UHGV virus genome: UHGV-1593293
DNA from: a virus
Length of the DNA stretch: 11,721 nucleotides
Direction: 5' to 3' (one strand)
In this document: piece by piece, positions 1-11,721 of the stretch
Layout: the number at the start of each line of letters is the position of its first letter
How positions within the stretch are numbered: position 1 is the first letter of the stretch
Translations under genes and position numbers: made by a program
The notes under the pieces: model-generated
Told to the model about the DNA's origin: nothing
What the model saw: the letters and a program-made list of their open reading frames with translations, nothing else
The model's database searches: none

Positions 1-54
1 AATGGCTTATACCCTACACGGGATAACTTAACTGATATCCCTTTTAACGGATAA
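1..54 (+). CDS. Possible 3' end of an upstream gene (frame 1 open from window edge to TAA at 52-54); would correspond to the orf201 position of P22
   Basis: Frame 1 is open from base 1 to the TAA at 52-54; only 17 codons are visible, so this is positional inference only. Confidence 0.2.
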   Translation, partial: NGLYPTRDNLTDIPFNG

Positions 55-66
55 ACGGAGCCAACA

Positions 67-309
67 ATGGCAGAGATTATTCCCATGACTGAAGAACAGA
101 AATTCCAGTTAGAGATTTACAAACTGGTCATGAACCAGAACGCAGCCGCAGAAGAAGCATTTCAATTCATTGGTACTGACGAGCTGAAGCTTGAGCTATT
201 CAAAATTCACTTCCAGTCAGGTGGCGCTAATTCAGATATCACGACCCGCACTATCGAAGCGGTGCGTAAATCGAAGGAAGCGTTAGACCTGTTCACTACC
301 GGAGCGTAA
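67..309 (+). CDS. Small hypothetical protein (80 aa), same position and length as P22 orf80 upstream of the small terminase gene
   Basis: ATG at 67 preceded by GGAG at 57-60; 80-aa ORF ending TAA 307-309; P22 has an 80-codon ORF immediately upstream of gene 3 (recalled from the P22 genome annotation). Confidence 0.6.
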   Translation: MAEIIPMTEEQKFQLEIYKLVMNQNAAAEEAFQFIGTDELKLELFKIHFQSGGANSDITTRTIEAVRKSKEALDLFTTGA

Positions 310-311
310 AC

Positions 312-383
312 ATGGCAACTCAAGGTTTCGACAACCCATCCAAATTCCGCGATGAATGGGATAAGCAAGCAGAAGGGAAATAA
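312..383 (+). CDS. Candidate 23-codon mini-ORF ([23 protein letters not shown]) filling the orf80-terS gap
   Basis: ATG 312-314 lies 7 nt after GGAG at 301-304; TAA at 381-383, 5 nt before the terS ATG. Too short to support by composition; spacing and SD only. Confidence 0.25.
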
Positions 384-388
384 TCAAT

Positions 389-877
389 ATGGCAGCACCA
401 AAGGGCAACCGATTTTGGGAGGCCCGCAGTAGTCATGGGCGAAATCCTAAATTCGAATCGCCTGAGGCGCTGTGGGCTGCTTGTTGTGAATACTTCGAGT
501 GGGTGGAAGCTAACCCGCTATGGGAGATGAAGGCGTTCTCGTATCAGGGTGAAGTGATACAAGAGCCTATCGCCAAGATGCGAGCGATGACCATTACCGG
601 CCTCACTCTGTTCATTGATGTGACGCTTGAAACATGGCGCACATATCGCCTGCGAGAAGATTTATCTGAAGTCGTTACGCGAGCAGAACAGGTCATCTAC
701 GACCAGAAATTCTCTGGCGCAGCCGCTGACCTTCTCAACGCTAACATCATCGCCCGTGATTTGGGCCTCAAAGAGCAGTCGCAAGTTGAAGACGTGACAC
801 CTGATAAGGGAGATCGCGATAAGCGACGCTCTCGTATCAAGGAGCTATTCAACCGTGGAACTGGACGCGATTCTTGA
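389..877 (+). CDS. terS: Terminase small subunit (P22 gp3-type, 162 aa)
   Basis: 162-aa ORF whose sequence ([29 protein letters not shown]...) I recognise as P22 gp3; same length as P22 gp3; contains the pac-like sequence; lies directly upstream of terL. Confidence 0.93.
657..678 (+). other. Candidate pac site (P22-type packaging initiation sequence) embedded in terS
   Basis: Sequence AAGATTTATCTGAAGTCGTTAC inside terS matches my recollection of the 22-bp P22 pac site, which lies within gene 3; exact boundaries are from memory. Confidence 0.55.
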
Positions 878-2354
878 TAACCTGAGCGACGAAGAGCAAA
901 TCGAATTGCTCGAGCTACTCGAAGAAGAAGAGAACTACAGGAACACACACCTGCTATATGAATTTACGCCATACAGCAAACAGCGTGAGTTCATCGACGC
1001 CGGGCATGACTATCCAGAGCGCTGTTTTATGGCTGGTAACCAGCTTGGTAAGTCATTTACTGGGGCTGCTGAAGTCGCGTTTCACCTTACCGGGCGTTAT
1101 CCGGGAACAAAAGGCTATCCGGCTGATGGTAAATATGGTGGGGAGTGGAAAGGTAAGCGTTTCTATGAGCCTGTTGTCTTCTGGATTGGCGGCGAGACAA
1201 ACGAGACTGTAACCAAAACGACTCAACGCATCCTGTGTGGTCGTATCGAAGAGAATGATGAGCCAGGCTACGGTTCCATACCTAAAGAAGACATCATTAG
1301 CTGGAAGAAGTCTCCTTTCTTTCCGAACCTTGTTGATCATCTTCTGGTTAAGCATCACACGGCTGATGGCGTTGAAGATGGCATTTCAATCTGCTACTTC
1401 AAACCATACTCGCAAGGCCGCGCTCGCTGGCAGGGTGACACAATCCACGGCGTGTGGTTTGACGAAGAGCCACCATACAGCATTTATGGCGAAGGTCTTA
1501 CCCGTACCAACAAATACGGGCAATTCTCAATTCTGACGTTTACCCCGCTGATGGGGATGTCTGACGTTGTTACCAAGTTCCTGAAGAATCCCAGCAAGTC
1601 GCAGAAAGTGCTCAACATGACCATCTATGACGCTGAGCACTACACCGACGAGCAGAAAGAGCAAATCATCGCATCCTATCCTGAGCATGAGAGAGAGGCG
1701 CGTGCTCGCGGTATTCCTACGATGGGTAGTGGTCGAATCTTCCAGATACCGGAAGAGACGATTAAGTGTCAGCCGTTCGAGTGTCCTGATCACTTCTACG
1801 TAATTGGCGGGATGGATTTTGGATGGGATCACCCGCAGGCGCAGGTTCAGCTTTGGTGGGATAAGGACGCAGACACAATCTACGTTTCACGCGTGTGGAA
1901 GGCGAAAGAAAAAACAGCCGTTCAGGCATGGGGATCTGTTAAATCATGGGCGCATAAAGTGCCAACCGCATGGCCTCATGACGGAAACCAGCACGAGAAG
2001 GGCGGCGGTGAGCAGCTCAAAGGGCAGTATGCAGATGCTGGTTTTATGATGTTGCAGGAGCATGCGACATGGCCTGATGGCGGTAATGCTGTGGAGCCTG
2101 GCATCACTGAATTGCGCGACATGATGCTCGATGGTCGCTTCAAAGTATTCAACACCTGTGAGCCATTCTTTGAGGAGTTCCGCCTCTATCACCGTGATGA
2201 AAACGGGAAAATCGTCAAGCTTAACGACGACGTTCTCTCAGCCGTTCGCTATGCATACATGATGCGCCGCTTCGCCAAAATGATGCGCGACATCAAAAAA
2301 CCAAAAGAGAAAAAGATACCAGCCCCAATCAGGCCCATCGCACGGAGAACTTAA
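855..2354 (+). CDS. terL: Terminase large subunit (P22 gp2-type, 499 aa), GTG start overlapping terS 3' end by 23 nt
   Basis: 499-aa ORF, same length as P22 gp2 and very similar to its recalled sequence ([30 protein letters not shown]...); AAGGAG at 839-844 upstream of GTG 855; ends TAA 2352-2354. Confidence 0.93.
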
Positions 2355-4520
2355 ATGGCCGACGAAAACAGACTCAATTCCATTCTGTGTAAGTTTGACG
2401 CGGACTGGATGGCGAGCGATGAAGCCAGAACCGAGGCGACAAATGACCTGTATTTTAGCCGAGTGTCGCAATGGGATGACTGGCTATCAAACTACACTAC
2501 CCTGCAATATCGCGGACAATTCGATGTTGTTCGCCCGGTGGTCAGGAAACTGGTAGCAGAGATGCGCCGGAACCCTATCGACGTTCTCTTCCGACCCAAA
2601 GACGGCGCTAATCCTGATGCTGCCGATGTGTTGATGGGAATGTATCGTACTGATATGCGCCATAACACGGCAAAGATTGCCGTTAACGTTGGCGTTCGTG
2701 AGCAGATAGAGTCCGGCGTTGGTGCATGGCGTCTGGTCACCCAGTACGAAGACAACGACCCAACAAGCAACAATCAGGTAATCCGACGCCTTCCAATCCA
2801 TGAAGCCTGCTCACACGTCATATGGGACGCCAGCAGCAAGCAGATGGATAAGAGCGACGCTAAGCACTGCACGGTGATTAACGCCTTGTCACGCAATGGC
2901 TGGAAAGAGTTCGCAGAGGATTACGGTATTGATCCGGACACCTTGCCATCTTTCCAGAATCCGAACGATAAATGGCTGTTTCCGTGGGTATCGAATGATG
3001 TCGTCTACGTCGCTGAGTATTACGAGGTCGAAGAGAAGAAAGAGAAAGTCTTCATCTACCGCGACCCGCTGACAGGTGAGCCGGTCAGCTATTTCCAGCA
3101 GGATATCAAAGACGTCATCGACGACCTGGCTAATCGTGGATTCATTAAGGTAGCAGAGCGTAAGGTCAAGCGTCGGCGTGTGTATAAGTCGATCATCACA
3201 TGCACACAGATACTGAAAGACCGCGAGAAGATAGCCGGAGAGCATATTCCAATCGTTCCAGTGTATGGCGAATGGTCCTTCGCTGGTGACAAGGAGTGCT
3301 ACGAAGGAGTGGTAAGGCTGACGAAAGACGGTCAGCGCCTTCGTAACATGATCATGTCATTCAACGCCGATATTGTTGCTCGTTCACCGAAGAAGAAACC
3401 GACCTTCTTCCCTGAGCAAATCGAAGGCTACGAATACATGTACGGTGGAAATGATGACTATCCGTACTATCTGCAGAACATGACCGATGAAAACGGTAAC
3501 GACCTGCCGATTGGTCCAATCTCCTACATGGAAAACCCTGAAGTGCCGCAAGCCAACGCTTACATGCTTGAGGCTGCCACCAACGCAGTGAAAGAGGTGG
3601 CTAGTCTTGGCGTGGATGCGCAGGCAGCAAACTCTCAGGTCGCTTTCGATACCGTCAATCAACTGAACATGCGGGCAGACCTTGAGACATACGTGTTTCA
3701 GGATAACCTGGCTACCGCAATGCGACGTGATGGCGAGATTTATGCCTCAATGGTCAACGATATTTATGACGTTCCTCGTCATGTAACGCTGACACTTGAA
3801 GATGGTAGCGAGAAAGACGTTCAACTATACGCGCAAGTTGTATATTACCAGTCCGGTAATGTGGTCACACTCAACGACATTCGCGGTCGCTATGAGTGCT
3901 ATACAGACGTTGGACCATCCTTCCAGAGTATGAAGGAACAGAACCGCGCAGAGATTCAGGAGTTGCTCACCAAGGTTCCGCAAGGTACTCCAGAGTTCCA
4001 GATGCTGATGCTGCAATACTTCACGCTGCTTGACGGTAAAGGCGTCGAGATGATGCGAGAGTACGCGAACAAGCAACTGGTGATGATGGGGCTGAAGAAA
4101 CCAGAAACACCTGAAGAGATGGAGATGGTACAGCAGGCTCAACAGCAGCCGCAGCAGCCATCAGCAGAGCAAATTCAGGCGCAGGGTATCCTTCTGCAAG
4201 GTCAGGCTGAATTGCTCAAGGCAGAGAACCAACAGGCGCAGATTCAGGTTGAAGCCGCCAAGGTTGAAGCCCAAAACCAACTCAACGCCGCGAAGATTGC
4301 GGAAATCTTCAACAATATGGACCTCGACAAGCAGGCAGAACTGCGTGAGTACCTCAAGCTCGTAGGTCAATTCCAGCAACAGCGCAGCAAAGATGCTCGC
4401 GCTAACGCTGAGCTGCTTCTTAAAGATGCAGACCAGACTCATTCACAACGCATGGATTTCGCGAATCTTATGCGTCAAGTTCAAATCCCCTCCGGCGGAG
4501 TAGCCGAGACACCTCAATAA
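2355..4520 (+). CDS. 1: Portal protein (P22 gp1-type, 721 aa) with long Gln/Ala-rich C-terminal helical region
   Basis: 721-aa ORF starting immediately after the terL stop; N-terminus ([18 protein letters not shown]...[10 protein letters not shown]...) and C-terminus (...[10 protein letters not shown]...SGGVAETPQ) match recalled P22 portal; P22 portal is 725 aa. Confidence 0.93.
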
Positions 4521-4533
4521 GAGAGAGTTAACC

Positions 4534-5445
4534 ATGGACCAAACCACCGACATTCAGGCTTCTGAAGAATTAACCCTGCCCGGCAATCATGCAGCGGCAT
4601 CTGCTGATGGCTTAGTTGTCGATAATGCCAACGACATCGCAGGTCAGGAAGAAGGCTTCGAGATTGTCCTGAAAGACGATGAGAAACCAAAACAAGACCC
4701 GGCAACTAATGCTGAATTTGCCCGTCGCCGCATCGAACGCAAACGCCAGCGTGAGCTTGAGCAGCAGATGGAAGCGGTTAAGCGTGGAGAGTTGCCGGAG
4801 CACCTGCGGGTGAACCCTGAGTTACCAAAACAACCAGACCCTAACGATTATCTTTCCGAAGACGCACTGGCTAAGTACGACTATGACCAGAGCCGAGCAC
4901 TGGCTGCCTTCCAGCAGGCAAACAGTGAATGGCAGATCAAGGCTATGGACGCACGAAGCCAGGCTGTCGCCGAGCAGGGGCGCAAAACTCAGGAGTTCAC
5001 CCAGCAATCAGCGCAATACGTCGAGGCAGCCCGTAAGCACTACGACGCAGCGGAAAAGCTCAATATCCCTGACTATCAGGAGAAAGAGGATGCATTCATG
5101 CAACTGGTGCCGCCAGCAGTCGGTGCCGACATCATGCGCCTCTTCCCGGAGAAATCCGCTGCTCTCATGTATCACCTTGGTGCTAATCCTGAGAAAACAC
5201 GCCAGTTGCTGGCGATGGACGGGCAATCCGCGCTGATTGAACTCACTCGACTGTCAGAACGTTTAACTCTCAAGCCTCGAGCCAAGCCTGTTTCAGAAGC
5301 CCCGTTACCTGATGAACCCATTCAGGGACACGCTGTTGCTGCAAATATCTCTGCGATTGAAAAGCAGATGGAAGCGGCAGCAAACAAAGGGGATGTAGAG
5401 ACATACCGCAAGCTCAAGGCGCAACTGAATAAAGGAATTCGATAA
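4534..5445 (+). CDS. 8: Scaffolding protein (P22 gp8-type, 303 aa)
   Basis: 303-aa ORF, same length as P22 gp8; acidic, helical, Ala/Glu/Gln/Lys-rich composition; sits between portal and coat; stop overlaps coat start (TAATG). Confidence 0.9.
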
Positions 5446-6746
5446 TGGCATTAAAAGAAGGGCAGTTAGTTACTTACGCTATCGATGAAATCATCGAAAC
5501 CGTCCAGAACCTGACGCCAATGGCGTCCAAAGTGACAAAATACACCCCTCCGGCAGAATCCATGCAGCGTTCAAGCAACACCGTGTGGATGCCTGTTGAG
5601 CAGGAAGCGCCAACTCAGACTGGCTGGGATTTAACTGGCAAGGCAAGCGGGATTCTGGAACTCTCCGTGAAATGCAACATGGGCGATCCGGATAACGATT
5701 TCTTCGAGCTTCGTGCAGATGACCTGCGTGATGAGCGTTCTTACCGTCGCCGCATCCAGGCATCCGCCAGAAAACTGGCGAATAACATTGAGTCAGCGAT
5801 TGCCAAACAGGCAACTGAAATGGGCTCGCTTGTTGTTCACGATACCCGCGCAATTGGTCCATCATCTACTGACCTGTCTGGCTGGGATTTTGTGTCTGAT
5901 GCAGAGCGCCTGATGTTCTCCCGTGAGCTAAACCGCGATATGGGCATCAGTTACTTCATGAACCCTGACGATTACCGCAAATCAGGCCGCAACCTGGTAG
6001 ATGGTGACATCTTTGGTCGCGTTCCTGAAGAAGCGTATCGTAACGGTACTATTCAGCGTCAGATTGCTGGCTTTGATGAAATTCTTCGCTCACCGAAACT
6101 TCCGGCAGTTACCAAGTCAACCGCTACTGATGTAACTGTGACTGGAGTGCATAAGTTTAAGCCGCAGGCATACACCCTTGATACCGATGGTAACAAAGAG
6201 AACGTCGACAACCGTGTTGCAACGGTGACCGTATCCTCCACCGCCGGATTTAATCGCGGCGACAAAATCAGCTTCACTGGTGTGAAATTTCTGTCTCAGA
6301 TGGCGAAGAACGTGCTGACTGATGATGCGACTTTCTCAATCACCCGTGTGATCGATAGTACTCACATCGAAATCACGCCGAAGCCGATTGCACTGGATGA
6401 CGAGTCACTGACAAAAGAAGAGAAGGCTTACGCTAATGTAAACACCTCTCTTGCTGCGAGCGCTACGGTAAACGTTCTGAATGTGGCAACAACCACCGCT
6501 AACGTGTTCTGGGCTGATGACTCAATCCGCCTGCTGTCTCAGCCGATCCCGGTAACCCATGAACTGTTTGCTGGTATGAAAACGTCTTCCTTCAGCATTC
6601 CTGGCATTGGTGTTAACGGCATCTTCGCAACGCAGGGTGATATCAACACTCTGTCTGGCAAGTGCCGTATTGCTGTGTGGTATTCAGCATGTGCTGTACG
6701 ACCAGAGGCAATTGGTGTTGGTCTGCCTAACCAGACTGCGCGATAA
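5445..6746 (+). CDS. 5: Major capsid (coat) protein (P22 gp5-type, 433 aa)
   Basis: 433-aa ORF (P22 coat 430 aa) directly after scaffold with ATG overlapping the scaffold stop; followed by a strong terminator, as expected for the most highly expressed structural gene. Confidence 0.9.
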
Positions 6747-6750
6747 CCAG

Positions 6751-6775
6751 AGGGAGCTTCGGCTCCCTTTTTTAT
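6751..6775 (+). terminator. Rho-independent terminator downstream of coat gene
   Basis: AGGGAGC-TTCG-GCTCCCT perfect 7-bp GC-rich stem with a TTCG tetraloop (6751-6768), followed by T-run TTTTTTAT; starts 5 nt after the coat stop codon. Confidence 0.8.
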
Positions 6776-6787
6776 CTGGAGACAAGC

Positions 6788-7024
6788 ATGACACACATGA
6801 TCTTTCGTCATGGAGACATGAAGAAATGGAAAGGCGTTGGATACGACTTTGAAATCGTGAAAGCCGAAGAGCTTCAGGAATATCTGGATGCTGGTTGGTT
6901 TTCACATCCTGATGACCTTTTGAAGGATGTTGCAGAGCCAGAGCCAGAGCCAGAAGAAAAACAGCGTAAAAAGCCTGGTCGAAAACCTAAGGCGGCAGCA
7001 GATGAACCTGACAACGAAGGGTGA
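6788..7024 (+). CDS. Small hypothetical protein (78 aa) in the P22 orf69 position between coat gene and gene 4; acidic EPEPEP stretch followed by basic KKPGRKPK tail
   Basis: ATG 6788 lies 8 nt after GGAG at 6777-6780; 78-aa ORF; 3' end overlaps the gene 4 start by 23 nt; P22 carries a small ORF (orf69) at this position as I recall. Confidence 0.5.
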
Positions 7025-7502
7025 TTTAGTTCTTGCGGCATTACGTAAGCTCGGTGTGGCATCAAATGCCACGTTAACCGATGTCGAACCGCAGTCTATG
7101 GAAGACGGCGTTAACGACCTTGAAATGATGATGGCTGAATGGCTTGGCGGTGATGCGTCACCAGGTATCAACGTTGGCTACATTTTCGCTGATGCAGATG
7201 TCGCTCCAGATCCTGGCGATGAACACGGTTTATCAAATAACGCTATCAATGCCGTCATTTTCAACCTTGCCTGCCGCATTGCTCCGGATTATGCGCTGGA
7301 AGCGTCTGCAAAACTTATAACCACTGCCAGATACGGGAAAGAGAGACTCGTCAAACTGTCTGCAATGGATAGGGCAAAAGCCGCTAAATGTAAGTCCGGT
7401 TATCCAAACCGTATGCCTGTTGGTAGTGGTAACCAGTTGGCGAAGTGGAATGGTTGGAATTACTTCCACCGAAAGGAACCTTGCGATAACGGGAGCGAAT
7501 AA
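7002..7502 (+). CDS. 4: Portal-associated head-completion / tail accessory protein (P22 gp4-type, 166 aa)
   Basis: The ORF track gives 6927-7502, but the ATG at 7002 yields 166 aa (P22 gp4 length) beginning [21 protein letters not shown]..., which resembles recalled gp4; AAGG upstream at 6989-6992; stop overlaps gene 10 start (TAATG). Confidence 0.8.
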
Positions 7503-8920
7503 TGCCTATTCAGCAACTTCCGCTTATGAAAGGTGTCGGCAAAGACTTTCGAAACGCCGACTATATCGACTATCTGCCAGTGAATATGCTGGCTACACCC
7601 AAAGAAATCCTCAACAGCAGCGGATATCTTCGCTCATTCCCGGGCATTGCCAAACGTTCTGATGTGAACGGTGTATCTCGAGGCGTCGAGTACAACATGG
7701 CGCAGAATGCTGTTTATCGTGTGTGTGGTGGCAAGCTGTACAAAGGAGAAAGTGAAGTCGGTGACGTTGCCGGAAGTGGTCGCGTATCAATGGCGCATGG
7801 TCGGACATCACAGGCAGTAGGCGTTAATGGTCAACTGGTCGAGTATCGCTATGATGGCACGGTTAAAACCGTCTCAAACTGGCCTACAGACAGCGGATTC
7901 ACGCAGTATGAGTTAGGTTCGGTCCGTGACATTACGCGCTTACGTGGGCGTTATGCGTGGTCAAAAGACGGTACTGATTCATGGTTTATCACTGACCTTG
8001 AAGACGAATCGCATCCTGACCGCTACAGCGCACAATATCGTGCCGAGTCGCAGCCTGACGGCATCATCGGAATCGGAACATGGCGAGACTTCATCGTCTG
8101 CTTTGGTTCATCGACGATTGAGTATTTTTCCCTGACTGGTGCAACCACCGTTGGTGCTGCTTTGTATGTCGCCCAGCCATCGCTGATGGTGCAGAAAGGT
8201 ATTGCCGGGACTTACTGCAAAACGCCGTTTGCTGATTCCTATGCGTTCATCAGCAATCCGGCAACGGGTGCGCCGTCTGTATACATCATCGGCTCCGGTC
8301 AGGTGTCACCAATCGCCAGCGCGAGCATTGAGAAAATCCTCCGCTCCTACACTGCTGATGAACTGGCTGATGGCGTGATGGAATCGTTGCGGTTTGATGC
8401 TCATGAGTTGCTGATTATCCATCTTACGCGTCACGTCCTCGTGTACGACGCATCTTCAAGCGCCAATGGCCCGCAATGGTGTGTGCTGAAAACAGGCCTG
8501 TATGACGATGTGTACCGCGCTATCGACTTCATTTTCGAAGGCAATCAGATAACGTGCGGCGATAAGCTGGAATCTGTTACCGGGAAATTGCAGTTCGATA
8601 TCAGCAGCCAGTACGACAAGCAGCAGGAACACCTGCTGTTTACTCCGTTGTTCAAAGCGGATAACGCCAGAGTGTTTGACTTTGAGGTTGAATCGTCAAC
8701 TGGCGTTGCGCAGTACGCCGACCGCCTTTTTCTCTCTGCAACCACTGACGGCATCAATTACGGTCGTGAGCAGATGATTGAGCAGAATGAACCGTTCGTT
8801 TACGACAAGCGTGTTTTGTGGAAGCGTGTCGGGCGAATAAGGAAAAATGTCGGCTTCAAATTGCGCGTTATCACAAAGTCACCTGTCACTCTGTCTGGCT
8901 GCCAGATAAGGATTGAGTAA
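7502..8920 (+). CDS. 10: Tail hub / head-completion protein (P22 gp10-type, 472 aa)
   Basis: 472-aa ORF, identical in length to P22 gp10 and at the expected position after gene 4; start overlaps gene 4 stop and its own stop overlaps the gene 26 start. Confidence 0.85.
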
Positions 8921-9621
8921 TGGCTGATTCGAATCTCAACACCCCTGTTATTGTGCAGGCGACGCGGCTCGATACATCAATCCTTCCACGCAATATATTC
9001 AGCCAGTCTTACCTGCTGTATGTCATTAATCAGGGGGCTGATGTCGGCGCAATTGCCGGGAAGGCAAATCAGGCTGGTCAGGGCGCTTACGATGCTCAGG
9101 TGAAAAACGATGAACAGGATGTCGAACTGGCTGACCACGATGCAAGAATCACCGCAAACACAAAAGCGATAAATCTCCTTGAGGTCAGGTTAACAACCGC
9201 CGAAGGGAAGATAGTCGTACTGCGTAGCGATGTTGATTACTTGCTGGATGAAGTTATCGATATTCAGGCGCATCTGGTCACTGTTGACAAAAGACTGGAT
9301 GACGTAGAAAACGATGTCTCTGGCATTAAGAGTGATTACGTATCGAAAACCGTAACCAAATTGCAGTCTCTTGCGTCACCGCTGGATGTAAAAACATCAT
9401 ATTCAGTTGATGGAATTCAGGTTGTTGGAGCAAGAAATACCGGATGGACTGCAGCCACAGGTACACCTCTTCTTGGCTCATTCAACGCTAACCAGTCATA
9501 CACGGTCGGCACTACGTACACACAATCCGAAGTCGCGGCTCTCGCTACAGGTTTGCAGCAGGCGCGGCAGCGTATTCTGGCGCTTGAAACGGCACTTAGA
9601 TTACATGGGCTGATTGACTGA
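8920..9621 (+). CDS. 26: Tail needle / plug protein (P22 gp26-type, 233 aa), trimeric coiled-coil fibre
   Basis: 233 aa, same as P22 gp26; N-terminus ([25 protein letters not shown]...[48 protein letters not shown]) and C-terminus (...[35 protein letters not shown]) match recalled gp26. Confidence 0.9.
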
Positions 9622-10076
9622 TGATTACATTCAAACCAACGCGAAACATCGACCTGATCGAAGCAGTCGGAAATCACCATGACATTATTGCCGGAAGCAA
9701 CAACGGTGATGGATACGACTACAAGCCTGAATGCCGTTACTTTGAGGTTAACGTGCACGGTCAGTTTGGCGGCATTGTTTACTATCAGGAGATTCAGCCG
9801 CTGACATTCGATTGCCACGCCATGTACCTGCCAGAGATTCGCGGCTTCAGCAAGGAAATCGGGCTGGCGTTCTGGCGATACATTCTGACTAACACCACCG
9901 TTCAGTGCATCACATCGTTCGCTGCACGCAAATTCCGCCACGGGCAGATGTACTGCGCAATGATTGGCCTTAAGCGTGTAGGAACCATCAAGAAATACTT
10001 CAAAGGCGTGGATGACGTGACGTTTTACAGCGCCACACGCGAAGAACTAATCGACTTCCTGAATCACGGGAGATAG
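9621..10076 (+). CDS. 14: Gene-14-position protein (151 aa), function unknown; Cys/His-rich
   Basis: 151-aa ORF between the tail needle and gp7 genes, where P22 gene 14 lies; ATG overlaps the gene 26 stop (TGATG). I do not recognise the sequence itself; the assignment is by synteny. Confidence 0.6.
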   Translation: MITFKPTRNIDLIEAVGNHHDIIAGSNNGDGYDYKPECRYFEVNVHGQFGGIVYYQEIQPLTFDCHAMYLPEIRGFSKEIGLAFWRYILTNTTVQCITSFAARKFRHGQMYCAMIGLKRVGTIKKYFKGVDDVTFYSATREELIDFLNHGR

Positions 10077-10078
10077 CC

Positions 10079-10771
10079 ATGTTATATGCATTTAAGCTGG
10101 GCAGAAAACTGCGCGGCGAGGAACCTTATTGCCCTGAAAAAGGCGGGAAAGGTGGCAGTTCTGATAAAAGCGCAAAGTATGCAGCAGAAGCTCAGAAGTA
10201 TGCTGCAGACCTGCAAAATCAGCAGTTCAACACCATCATGAACAACCTGAAGCCGTTTACTCCTCTGGCTGATAAGTATGTCGGCAGCCTCGAGAACTTA
10301 TCGTCTCTGGAAGGGCAAGGTCAGGCGCTTAACCAGTATTACAACTCTCAGCAGTATAAAGACCTTGCAGGTCAGGCTCGCTATCAGAGTCTGGCGGCAG
10401 CGGAAGCAACAGGTGGATTGGGTTCCACCGCAACCAGTAATCAGTTAGCAACAATCGCACCAACGCTTGGTCAGCAATGGCTATCTGGTCAGATGAACAA
10501 CTACCAGAATCTGGCAAATATTGGTCTTGGCGCACTGCAAGGTCAGGCAAACGCCGGGCAGACATATGCCAACAACATGAGTCAGATTTCGCAGCAAAGT
10601 GCGGCTCTTGCAGCGGCAAATGCCAACAGACCATCAGCAATGCAATCTGCTATTGGCGGAGGTGCGTCTGGTGCTATTGCTGGGGCTGGACTTGCGAAAT
10701 TAATTGGTTCATCAACTCCGTGGGGGGCTGCGATCGGCGGCGGTCTTGGTCTGCTTGGCTCGTTGTTTTAA
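10079..10771 (+). CDS. 7: Ejection (internal virion) protein (P22 gp7-type, 230 aa), Gln/Asn/Ala/Gly-rich
   Basis: 230 aa (P22 gp7 229 aa); GGGAGA SD at 10068-10073; low-complexity Q/N/A/G composition and a glycine-rich hydrophobic C-terminus typical of P22-like ejection proteins; correct synteny. Confidence 0.8.
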   Translation: MLYAFKLGRKLRGEEPYCPEKGGKGGSSDKSAKYAAEAQKYAADLQNQQFNTIMNNLKPFTPLADKYVGSLENLSSLEGQGQALNQYYNSQQYKDLAGQARYQSLAAAEATGGLGSTATSNQLATIAPTLGQQWLSGQMNNYQNLANIGLGALQGQANAGQTYANNMSQISQQSAALAAANANRPSAMQSAIGGGASGAIAGAGLAKLIGSSTPWGAAIGGGLGLLGSLF

Positions 10772-10780
10772 GGGGTAATC

Positions 10781-11560
10781 ATGGCTACGTGGCAACAGGG
10801 TATTAATTCTGGTGGTTTTCTGGCTGGCATCGGTACGCAAAATGAGAATGCGCCAAAGGCAAGCGACATTAACGCAACGCTTGGTCTGATCCGCGAAAAC
10901 AATGAACTGGCTCGCTCAGGTGCAAATAACGTTGGCCTGACCGCCTTACGTGGTCTGGCTGGAGTTGCTGATATTTACAATCAGGAACAGCAACAGAAAG
11001 CTATTAGTGCGTTCAATAAGGTTCATGCTGATGCATGGGCTTCTGGTGATCCATCGGGACTATTTAAGTTTGCCCAGGAAAATCCAGCGTTTGTTGCACA
11101 GGCACAACAGGCGTTTTCAGGTCTTAATGATCAGCAACGCAACGATATGGGCGATTTAGCCATGAGGGCTAACGTCGCTCTTTCTCAGGGACCGGAAGCC
11201 TACAGTAAATTCATTACTGACAACAAGGACAGGTTAAATCGCGTTGGTGCTAATGCTGACTGGATGATTCAGACAGGTATCCAGAATCCAGAGCAGCTAT
11301 CACACATGCTGACTACTATGTCTCTCGGTGCACTTGGGCCAGAAAAGGCGTTTGCTGTTCAGGATAAGATGGTTGGTCGCCAGCAGGAGCAGCAAAGAAT
11401 TAACGAAACCATTCGCAATAATGACATGACGAATGCGAGGGCTATTAGGGGGCAGGATCTTTCCTATAAGGCTCAAATGGCAAGACTGAATCACGACAAG
11501 TATGTGTTTAAGCAGTCACAGGCGGCCCTTGAAAGAGCAGGACAACTTCAGGATATGTAG
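10781..11560 (+). pseudogene. 20: Ejection protein gene (P22 gp20-type) truncated after 259 codons by IS2 insertion; stop codon TAG is supplied by the first three bases of IS2
   Basis: ORF begins with a good SD (AAGGGG) right after gp7, as gene 20 does in P22, but P22 gp20 is about 471 aa as I recall; the frame ends at 11558-11560 exactly where the IS2 terminal repeat (TAGACTGGCCCCC...) begins. Confidence 0.8.
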
Positions 11561-11598
11561 ACTGGCCCCCTGAATCTCCAGACAACCAATATCACTTA
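11558..11598 (+). repeat. IS2 left terminal inverted repeat (IRL), approximate extent
   Basis: First roughly 41 bp of the IS2 end as recalled; the precise inner boundary is not determinable without the right end for comparison. Confidence 0.6.
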
Positions 11599-11648
11599 TT
11601 TAAGTGATAGTCTTAATACTAGTTTTTAGACTAGTCATTGGAGAGCAG

Positions 11649-11721
11649 ATGATTGATGTCTTAGGACCGGAGAAACGCAGACGGCGTACTACACAGGAAA
11701 AGATCGCTATTGTTCAGCAGA
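11649..11721 (+). CDS. insC: IS2 transposase OrfA (InsC), N-terminal 24 codons; partial, runs off window
   Basis: ATG 11649 lies 5 nt after GGAG 11640-11643; translation [24 protein letters not shown] is the recalled N-terminus of IS2 OrfA, including the start of its helix-turn-helix region. Confidence 0.85.

Follow-up and report, generated by a model that had tools for sequence, protein, structure and literature searches.

An IS2 element interrupts ejection-protein gene 20 of an HK620/P22-type prophage in virus genome UHGV-1593293

The virus genome UHGV-1593293 was analyzed over a stretch of 11,721 nucleotides, hereafter called the window. Close to its 3' end, the open reading frame (ORF) that follows the ejection-protein gene 7 stops after only 259 codons. 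Is this ORF a short natural gene or the 5' part of a gene 20 cut by an insertion sequence, and what does the early stop mean for the prophage that carries it? The ORF extends from 10781 to 11560 on the plus strand, with an ATG at 10781, the sequence AAGGGG upstream, 259 sense codons and a TAG at 11558-11560. The features on which the answer depends are the following.

10079-10771, plus strand: gene 7 (ejection protein gp7, 230 aa), intact; PF25688 P22_gp7, E = 2.7e-134, model positions 1-230 of 230.
10781-11557, plus strand: 5' part of gene 20, codons 1-259 of 449; PF16928, identity with HK620 gp20 and with W46 gene 20, alignment A1.
11553-11557, plus strand: target pentanucleotide ATATG, the ATG of which is codon 259; it flanks IS2 on both sides in strain CH4804 and is single copy in W46.
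11558-11560, plus strand: TAG stop of the truncated ORF, formed by bases 1-3 of IS2; the IS2 left inverted repeat (IRL) starts with 5'-TAG (PMC3299598).
11558-11599, plus strand: IRL of IS2, 42 bp; 41 of 42 positions as in IS2A of K-12, with the mismatch at position 42.
11558-11721, plus strand: left-hand 164 nt of IS2 (IS3 family), oriented like gene 20; identity with IS2A and with the CH4804 copy.
11649-11721, plus strand: start of IS2 orfA (insC), 24 codons of which lie inside the window; ATG at IS position 92, as in insC1 of K-12.

The gp7 ORF lies 9 nt 5' of the truncated ORF, in the same order as in HK620, P22, W46 and 10 other prophages. As this gp7 is of full length and directly 5', the next ORF sits in the gene 20 position. 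The 259-aa product matched PF16928 (Inj_translocase) from residue 12 to residue 228, that is, over model positions 1-217 of 218 (E = 9.3e-110, 365.9 bits for a cutoff of 29.7), and a tblastn search showed 99.2% identity with residues 1-259 of HK620 gp20. The first-pass annotation, which had placed this ORF in the gene 20 position, is borne out by the PF25688 match upstream, by the PF16928 match and by the HK620 gp20 identity. Also, the gene 20 part of the window is identical to W46 gene 20 at 777 of 777 nt. In the product, the conserved N-terminal domain (residues ~1-220) is complete, whereas the variable C-terminal module is present only up to about its 40th residue; the product does not reach the full length of the gp20 family (about 420-475 aa with the C-terminal module included).

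The lengths of gp20 homologues were taken from the 120 best of 2,919. They were mostly 424 aa (68 sequences), 449 aa (37) or 418 aa (9), together with lengths of 422, 439 and 451 aa, and the three short ones (289, 312 and 389 aa) were fragments with unrelated tails. The first-pass annotation had itself proposed looking for a gp20 that naturally measures about 259 aa and shares this C-terminus; none was present among these 120 best homologues, nor among 10 other prophages that encode an identical gp7. In the latter, gp20 measures 424-473 aa and is directly followed by gp16, all of these contexts being intact. An exact match to the 259-aa product was found only in one ENA contig, which ends at the junction. 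The length of about 471 aa given for P22 gp20 was right for P22 itself, but the relevant intact allele here is the 449-aa HK620 type. The 259-aa product is a truncated member of the gp20 family and not a short natural variant. For annotation purposes, ORF 10781-11560 should be described as a gene 20 pseudogene (5' fragment) rather than as a short "DNA transfer protein".

The mosaic build of gp20 has already been described (PMC10883804), and it was clearly visible in our comparison of window positions 10781-11557 with loci L001, L003, L007 and L010-L019. Over the N-terminal ~215-220 residues, identity is 90% or more in 12 of the 12 prophages compared (alignment A1, pairwise). The C-terminal module, of about 209 to 258 aa in these prophages, shows a mean identity of 30% with a minimum of 6%, and it is present in every full-length homologue compared. 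The IS2 insertion falls ~40 residues into this module. A co-variation of the lost module with gp16 was considered and rejected: the modules of L014 and L003 are 29% identical for gp16 proteins at 93%, those of L013 and L019 are 91% identical for gp16 proteins at 54%, which indicates independent assortment, and the correlation between module and gp16 was no stronger than for the N-terminal domain. A search of PDB sequences for gp20 relatives with a solved structure gave no match.

IS2 belongs to the IS3 family and transposes by a copy-out/paste-in pathway via a minicircle. Bases 11558-11721 of the window are identical at 158 of 164 positions to the curated IS2A of K-12 MG1655 (annotated mobile element, 1331 bp) and at 162 of 164 positions to the IS2 copy of strain CH4804, which is 1331 bp long as well. 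They also match at 100% the IS2 left ends of many E. coli genomes, some of them labelled "IS3-like element IS2 family transposase". The offset of orfA is the same as in K-12, where insC1 starts at 381351 and the IS2A element at 381260, and the three differences from K-12 inside orfA, read by eye, are all at third codon positions. The IRL of IS2 has been described as a 42-bp repeat beginning 5'-TAGACTGGCCCCC (Lewis et al. 2012, PMC3299598), and since it begins with 5'-TAG, bases 1-3 of the element serve as the stop codon of the truncated gene 20. The description of an ORF ending at 259 aa at the IS2 boundary, with a TAG contributed by IS2, was thus correct, coordinates included. The window ends 164 nt into IS2; the right end of the element and the expected second copy of ATATG would lie past that point. 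Rfam and repeat scans around the junction gave no matches.

A small sequence variation was noticed within the left end of the element. At IS2 positions 42-43 (window 11599-11600), the window has CTTATTTAAG, versus CTTAAATAAG in K-12 IS2A and in the CH4804 copy. The reported docking site of the OrfA repressor of IS2 is TAAATAA (PMC3299598), and the change turns it into TATTTAA, in effect an inversion of the loop in a small palindrome. The TATTTAA allele is common, as the same 164-nt left ends are present in many E. coli genomes.

An uninterrupted version of the same prophage was found by a megablast search of window positions 1-11557 against 5,426 complete E. coli genomes. Only one of them, E. 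coli W46 (NZ_CP163115.1), matched this whole segment at 100.0%, the next best genomes being at about 96-97%. Base by base, there was 1 mismatch in 11,557 nt, at position 3843. The W46 sequence at the junction is ...CAGGATATG/GATGTTTTGTCTC... and that of the window ...CAGGATATG/TAGACTGGCCCCC... (the slash marks the junction). W46 continues across the site (...GATATG/GATGTT..., i.e. ...GATATG/GATGTTTTG...) precisely where the window turns to IS2, and a junction located at the very point where a near-identical prophage goes on with gene 20 is not a chance pattern. In W46, gene 20 is intact with 449 codons and is followed by gene 16, the end of the former overlapping the start of the latter (TAATG); HK620 gene 20 likewise has 449 codons. 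Over their first 259 codons, the intact 449-aa genes of HK620, CUS-3 and W46 are 97-100% identical to the window, and the gene order 14-7-20 is common to all, but these genes extend 190 codons further than the window ORF and overlap the start of gene 16. On this comparison, W46 is the empty-site allele of the window's HK620/P22-type (Lederbergvirus) prophage, and its 449-codon gene 20 substantiates the proposal that IS2 had cut the gene to 259 codons. Given that the flanking 11.5 kb differ by one base from the uninterrupted copy, the IS2 insertion looks very recent.

The sole difference between W46 and the window, at position 3843, is located in the portal gene (2355-4520) and gives TAT (Tyr) for GAT (Asp) at codon 497. 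Asp497 is kept in W46, in P22 and even in HK620, the portal of which is only 33% identical overall; the Tyr of the window is thus derived. It could represent a further lesion or else neutral drift that followed inactivation. A search for the exact sequence of the window-specific portal protein (Y497) gave no record. The W46 prophage (L005), which has an integrase of the IntS type, is integrated by a tRNA-Arg gene adjoining yfdC, and its annotation already includes a RusA pseudogene (partial) and a hypothetical gene with a frameshift (28990-29166 and 40560-40738). The empty-site prophage may therefore not be pristine itself.

The same position in gene 20 is occupied by IS2 in another strain. 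In CH4804 (L002, NZ_CM166344.1, 6773-8113), a complete 1331-bp IS2 interrupts gene 20 at this very nucleotide but points the other way, with a 5-bp target duplication, ATATG. On the 3' side of this IS2 is a 191-codon ORF, 100% identical to the W46 C-terminus, and then gene 16. The 5' part of gene 20 is annotated by PGAP as a pseudogene "missing C-terminus" (ACUZ8C_RS07985). CH4804 and the window share the nucleotide and the ATATG target, but they differ in the end of the element that adjoins the 5' part: this is the IRL in the window, whereas in CH4804 it is the right inverted repeat (IRR), and the ORF reads into the IS for about 28 extra codons (reading by eye). The prophage background of CH4804 is also unlike that of the window, with 6 mismatches in the 777 nt of the 5' part and different head genes, which indicates that its insertion is independent. 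A third case is the ENA contig ERZ773525 NODE_39 (end of L004), a W46-type prophage that stops exactly at ...CAGGATATG; its G at 3843 sets it apart from the source of the window.

Gene 20 is therefore discontinuous at the same base in three genomes, through at least two independent events. With uniform insertion along this 1,350-bp gene, the chance of hitting the same base would be about 1 in 1,350, so that a local target preference of IS2 is likely. These sequences suggest that the codon-259 site of HK620-type gene 20 is a hot spot for IS2 insertion. For the related IS911, a target resembling the IS end is described as a targeting mode. A target mimicking the IS2 end was rejected here, as the best 16-nt matches reached 9/16 and 10/16, values attained by 1345 and 366 of 2000 shuffles, respectively. 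Mutation-accumulation data revealed no sequence motif at IS2 targets (PMC5009759), and curvature has been proposed for the choice of targets (PMC3299598). Non-random targeting by IS2 being already known, the hot spot is a detail and not a discovery.

From the junction, the W46 allele and the CH4804 copy, it appears highly likely that IS2 transposed into gene 20 between codons 259 and 260 of 449 as a simple insertion, and that the prophage lost its infectivity. An IS2 resident in the host would have transposed into gene 20 of this HK620/P22-type prophage between these two codons. The left end of the element puts a TAG in frame and translation stops at once, giving a 259-aa product of ~28 kDa (rough estimate) that keeps the conserved N-terminal domain without 190 residues of the C-terminal module. 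A simple insertion would also place the end of IS2, ...GGGGCAAATCCA, about 1.17 kb past the last base of the window, and gene 20 would resume there with ATATGGATGTTTTG... We infer that the right end is indeed followed by a second ATATG, by codons 259-449 and by gene 16. On four contigs, a deposited E. coli protein labelled "partial" is exactly the 191-aa C-fragment that would result. When viral contigs, GTDB representative genomes and JGI metagenome contigs were scanned for the exact patterns of the left and of the predicted right junction, no match was obtained, and the window's junction was also absent from the 5,426 complete E. coli genomes searched by megablast.

Another possibility is that the locus was rearranged, a deletion or an IS2-IS2 recombination having removed or moved the remainder of gene 20, perhaps along with gene 16 and the tailspike gene, so that the prophage would be a truncated remnant at this end. 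Only 164 nt of IS2 are inside the window and the right junction is past its end; W46 is rich in IS2, with about 14 other copies (15 matching places versus a median of 3 per genome), which gives scope for IS2-IS2 recombination; and IS-bounded truncated remnants of P22-like prophages do exist, L010 being an example. Nevertheless, both ends of an element at this site can be seen only in CH4804, and there the insertion is clean: 5 bp are duplicated, and the 3' fragment is intact and accompanied by gene 16. Also, a single SNP in 11.5 kb relative to W46 leaves little time for secondary events, and the exact 191-aa C-fragments of public assemblies start at the duplicated ATG. A rearrangement is thus unlikely.

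Mobile-element damage or insertions of other kinds were seen among the related P22-like prophages (L010 947-2707 and 4157-4702; L015 2751-3476). In the L010 remnant, an IS3-family-type transposase gene abuts gene 4, beside an apparent host exonuclease I gene. L010 and L015 carry insertions of NUMOD4/HNH endonuclease genes, either in the gp10 gene or behind it, and in L015 a 34-aa gp10 fragment lies 5' of the HNH gene.

The consequence of a simple insertion in gene 20 can be appreciated by comparison with P22. The three ejection proteins of P22 are dispensable for particle assembly and required for DNA delivery (PMC4992974; PMC8402733), and the first-pass annotation was right that gp20 is needed for this delivery. 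In the P22 gene 20 mutant amH1025 (codon 315), the 314-aa N-terminal amber fragment is still encapsidated (PMC8402733). In amL100 and amH1032, where the last 66 and 33 residues of gp20 are removed, virions are non-functional (PMC10883804). The HK620 genes 7, 20 and 16 function as a set in a P22 hybrid (PMC10883804). The window resembles these nonsense mutants, which combine a premature stop in the same ejection-protein family with a packageable N-fragment and virions that are non-functional for DNA delivery. It differs from them by a stop that comes from the end of IS2 and not from a point mutation, by a shorter fragment (259 of 449 residues) and by an HK620-type C-terminal half, to which the C-terminal half of P22 gp20 is only distantly related, and this limits the comparison. 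The fragment ends at about residue 269 of P22 gp20 (alignment A1), with 42% of the protein missing. By analogy with the P22 mutants, the prophage is very probably no longer infectious. On induction, DNA-filled particles would still be assembled, probably carrying the ~28 kDa stub of gp20, and would not inject; since the N-terminal portion is enough for incorporation into the procapsid in P22, the 259-aa fragment is probably packaged. An amber suppressor would have no useful effect on this lesion, as 1.3 kb of IS2 follow the stop.

The packaging of the fragment leads to a more elaborate reading, which we consider very unlikely. The recurrent IS2 hot spot, used in both orientations, would yield a packageable N-fragment acting as a dominant-negative decoy against superinfecting P22-like phages, to the benefit of the host population. 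This reading is based on the domain kept by the 259-aa fragment, which is at least 90% identical among the prophages, and on the fact that in P22 the N-terminal portion mediates packaging. If it were true, a superinfecting P22-like phage would trans-activate the late operon of the prophage, and the fragment would be co-packaged into its progeny and would poison them.

That the split gene is still functional in a viable prophage, with DNA delivery supported by the N-fragment by itself or by the N-fragment plus a C-fragment (residues 259-449) translated on its own, is extremely improbable. The whole Pfam domain (12-228) is kept, the duplicated ATATG provides an ATG for the 191-aa ORF, which is a PGAP CDS in CH4804, and the partial function of P22 gp20 N-fragments has been stated as unknown (PMC8402733). 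However, the loss of merely 33 or 66 C-terminal residues disables P22 virions (PMC10883804), the encapsidated 314-aa fragment stems from a nonsense mutant in a gene required for DNA delivery, and a C-terminal module of about 200-250 aa accompanies every full-length homologue. A free C-fragment would probably be neither packaged nor ejected, and a rescue by it is unlikely because packaging depends on the N-terminal part of gp20. Finally, a chimeric assembly, in which the end of the prophage contig had been joined to an IS2 read and gene 20 was really intact, is practically negligible: IS2 is a multi-copy repeat and the window terminates inside it, but the join is exactly at base 1 of the IRL and at the same nucleotide as the genuine CH4804 IS2 with its target duplication, an independent ENA assembly breaks at this nucleotide, and a random chimera would not respect both boundaries.

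The simple insertion could also affect the genes located further downstream. IS2 has Rho-dependent terminators, on which the galEP3 reporter relies (PMC3737525), and a polar effect of the element on gene 16 and on the tailspike gene, as suggested in the first-pass annotation, is therefore plausible. In galEP3, as in the window, IS2 lies within an operon, the gal operon in that case, and its Rho-dependent terminators lower distal expression (PMC3737525). In the window, by contrast, the operon is a phage late operon under a Q/gp23-type antiterminator, and it is the interrupted gene itself that suffers most. Prophages of the W46 type encode such a Q/gp23-type late antitermination protein. A lambdoid late antiterminator should reduce termination inside the IS and blunt polarity, which in the present prophage may be weakened in this way. 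A consensus scan of a full IS2 copy revealed no intrinsic terminator and no outward sigma-70 promoter; with no intrinsic terminator, any polarity would be Rho-dependent or translational. Also, the start of gene 16 overlaps the stop of gene 20, so that the loss of translational coupling may lower gp16 as well. We infer some reduction of gene 16 expression. Such polarity is secondary to the loss of gp20.

The window, CH4804 and the break of the ENA contig together point to a preferred IS2 target inside gene 20. At one SNP from an intact copy, the inactivation of the prophage appears to have been caught very soon after the event. Prophage decay through an insertion sequence is ordinary and well known, and the window adds one more example, in which both the mechanism and the consequence are textbook. 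The prophage looks complete gene by gene over the 11.5 kb seen, yet it should score as defective for the production of infectious virions.
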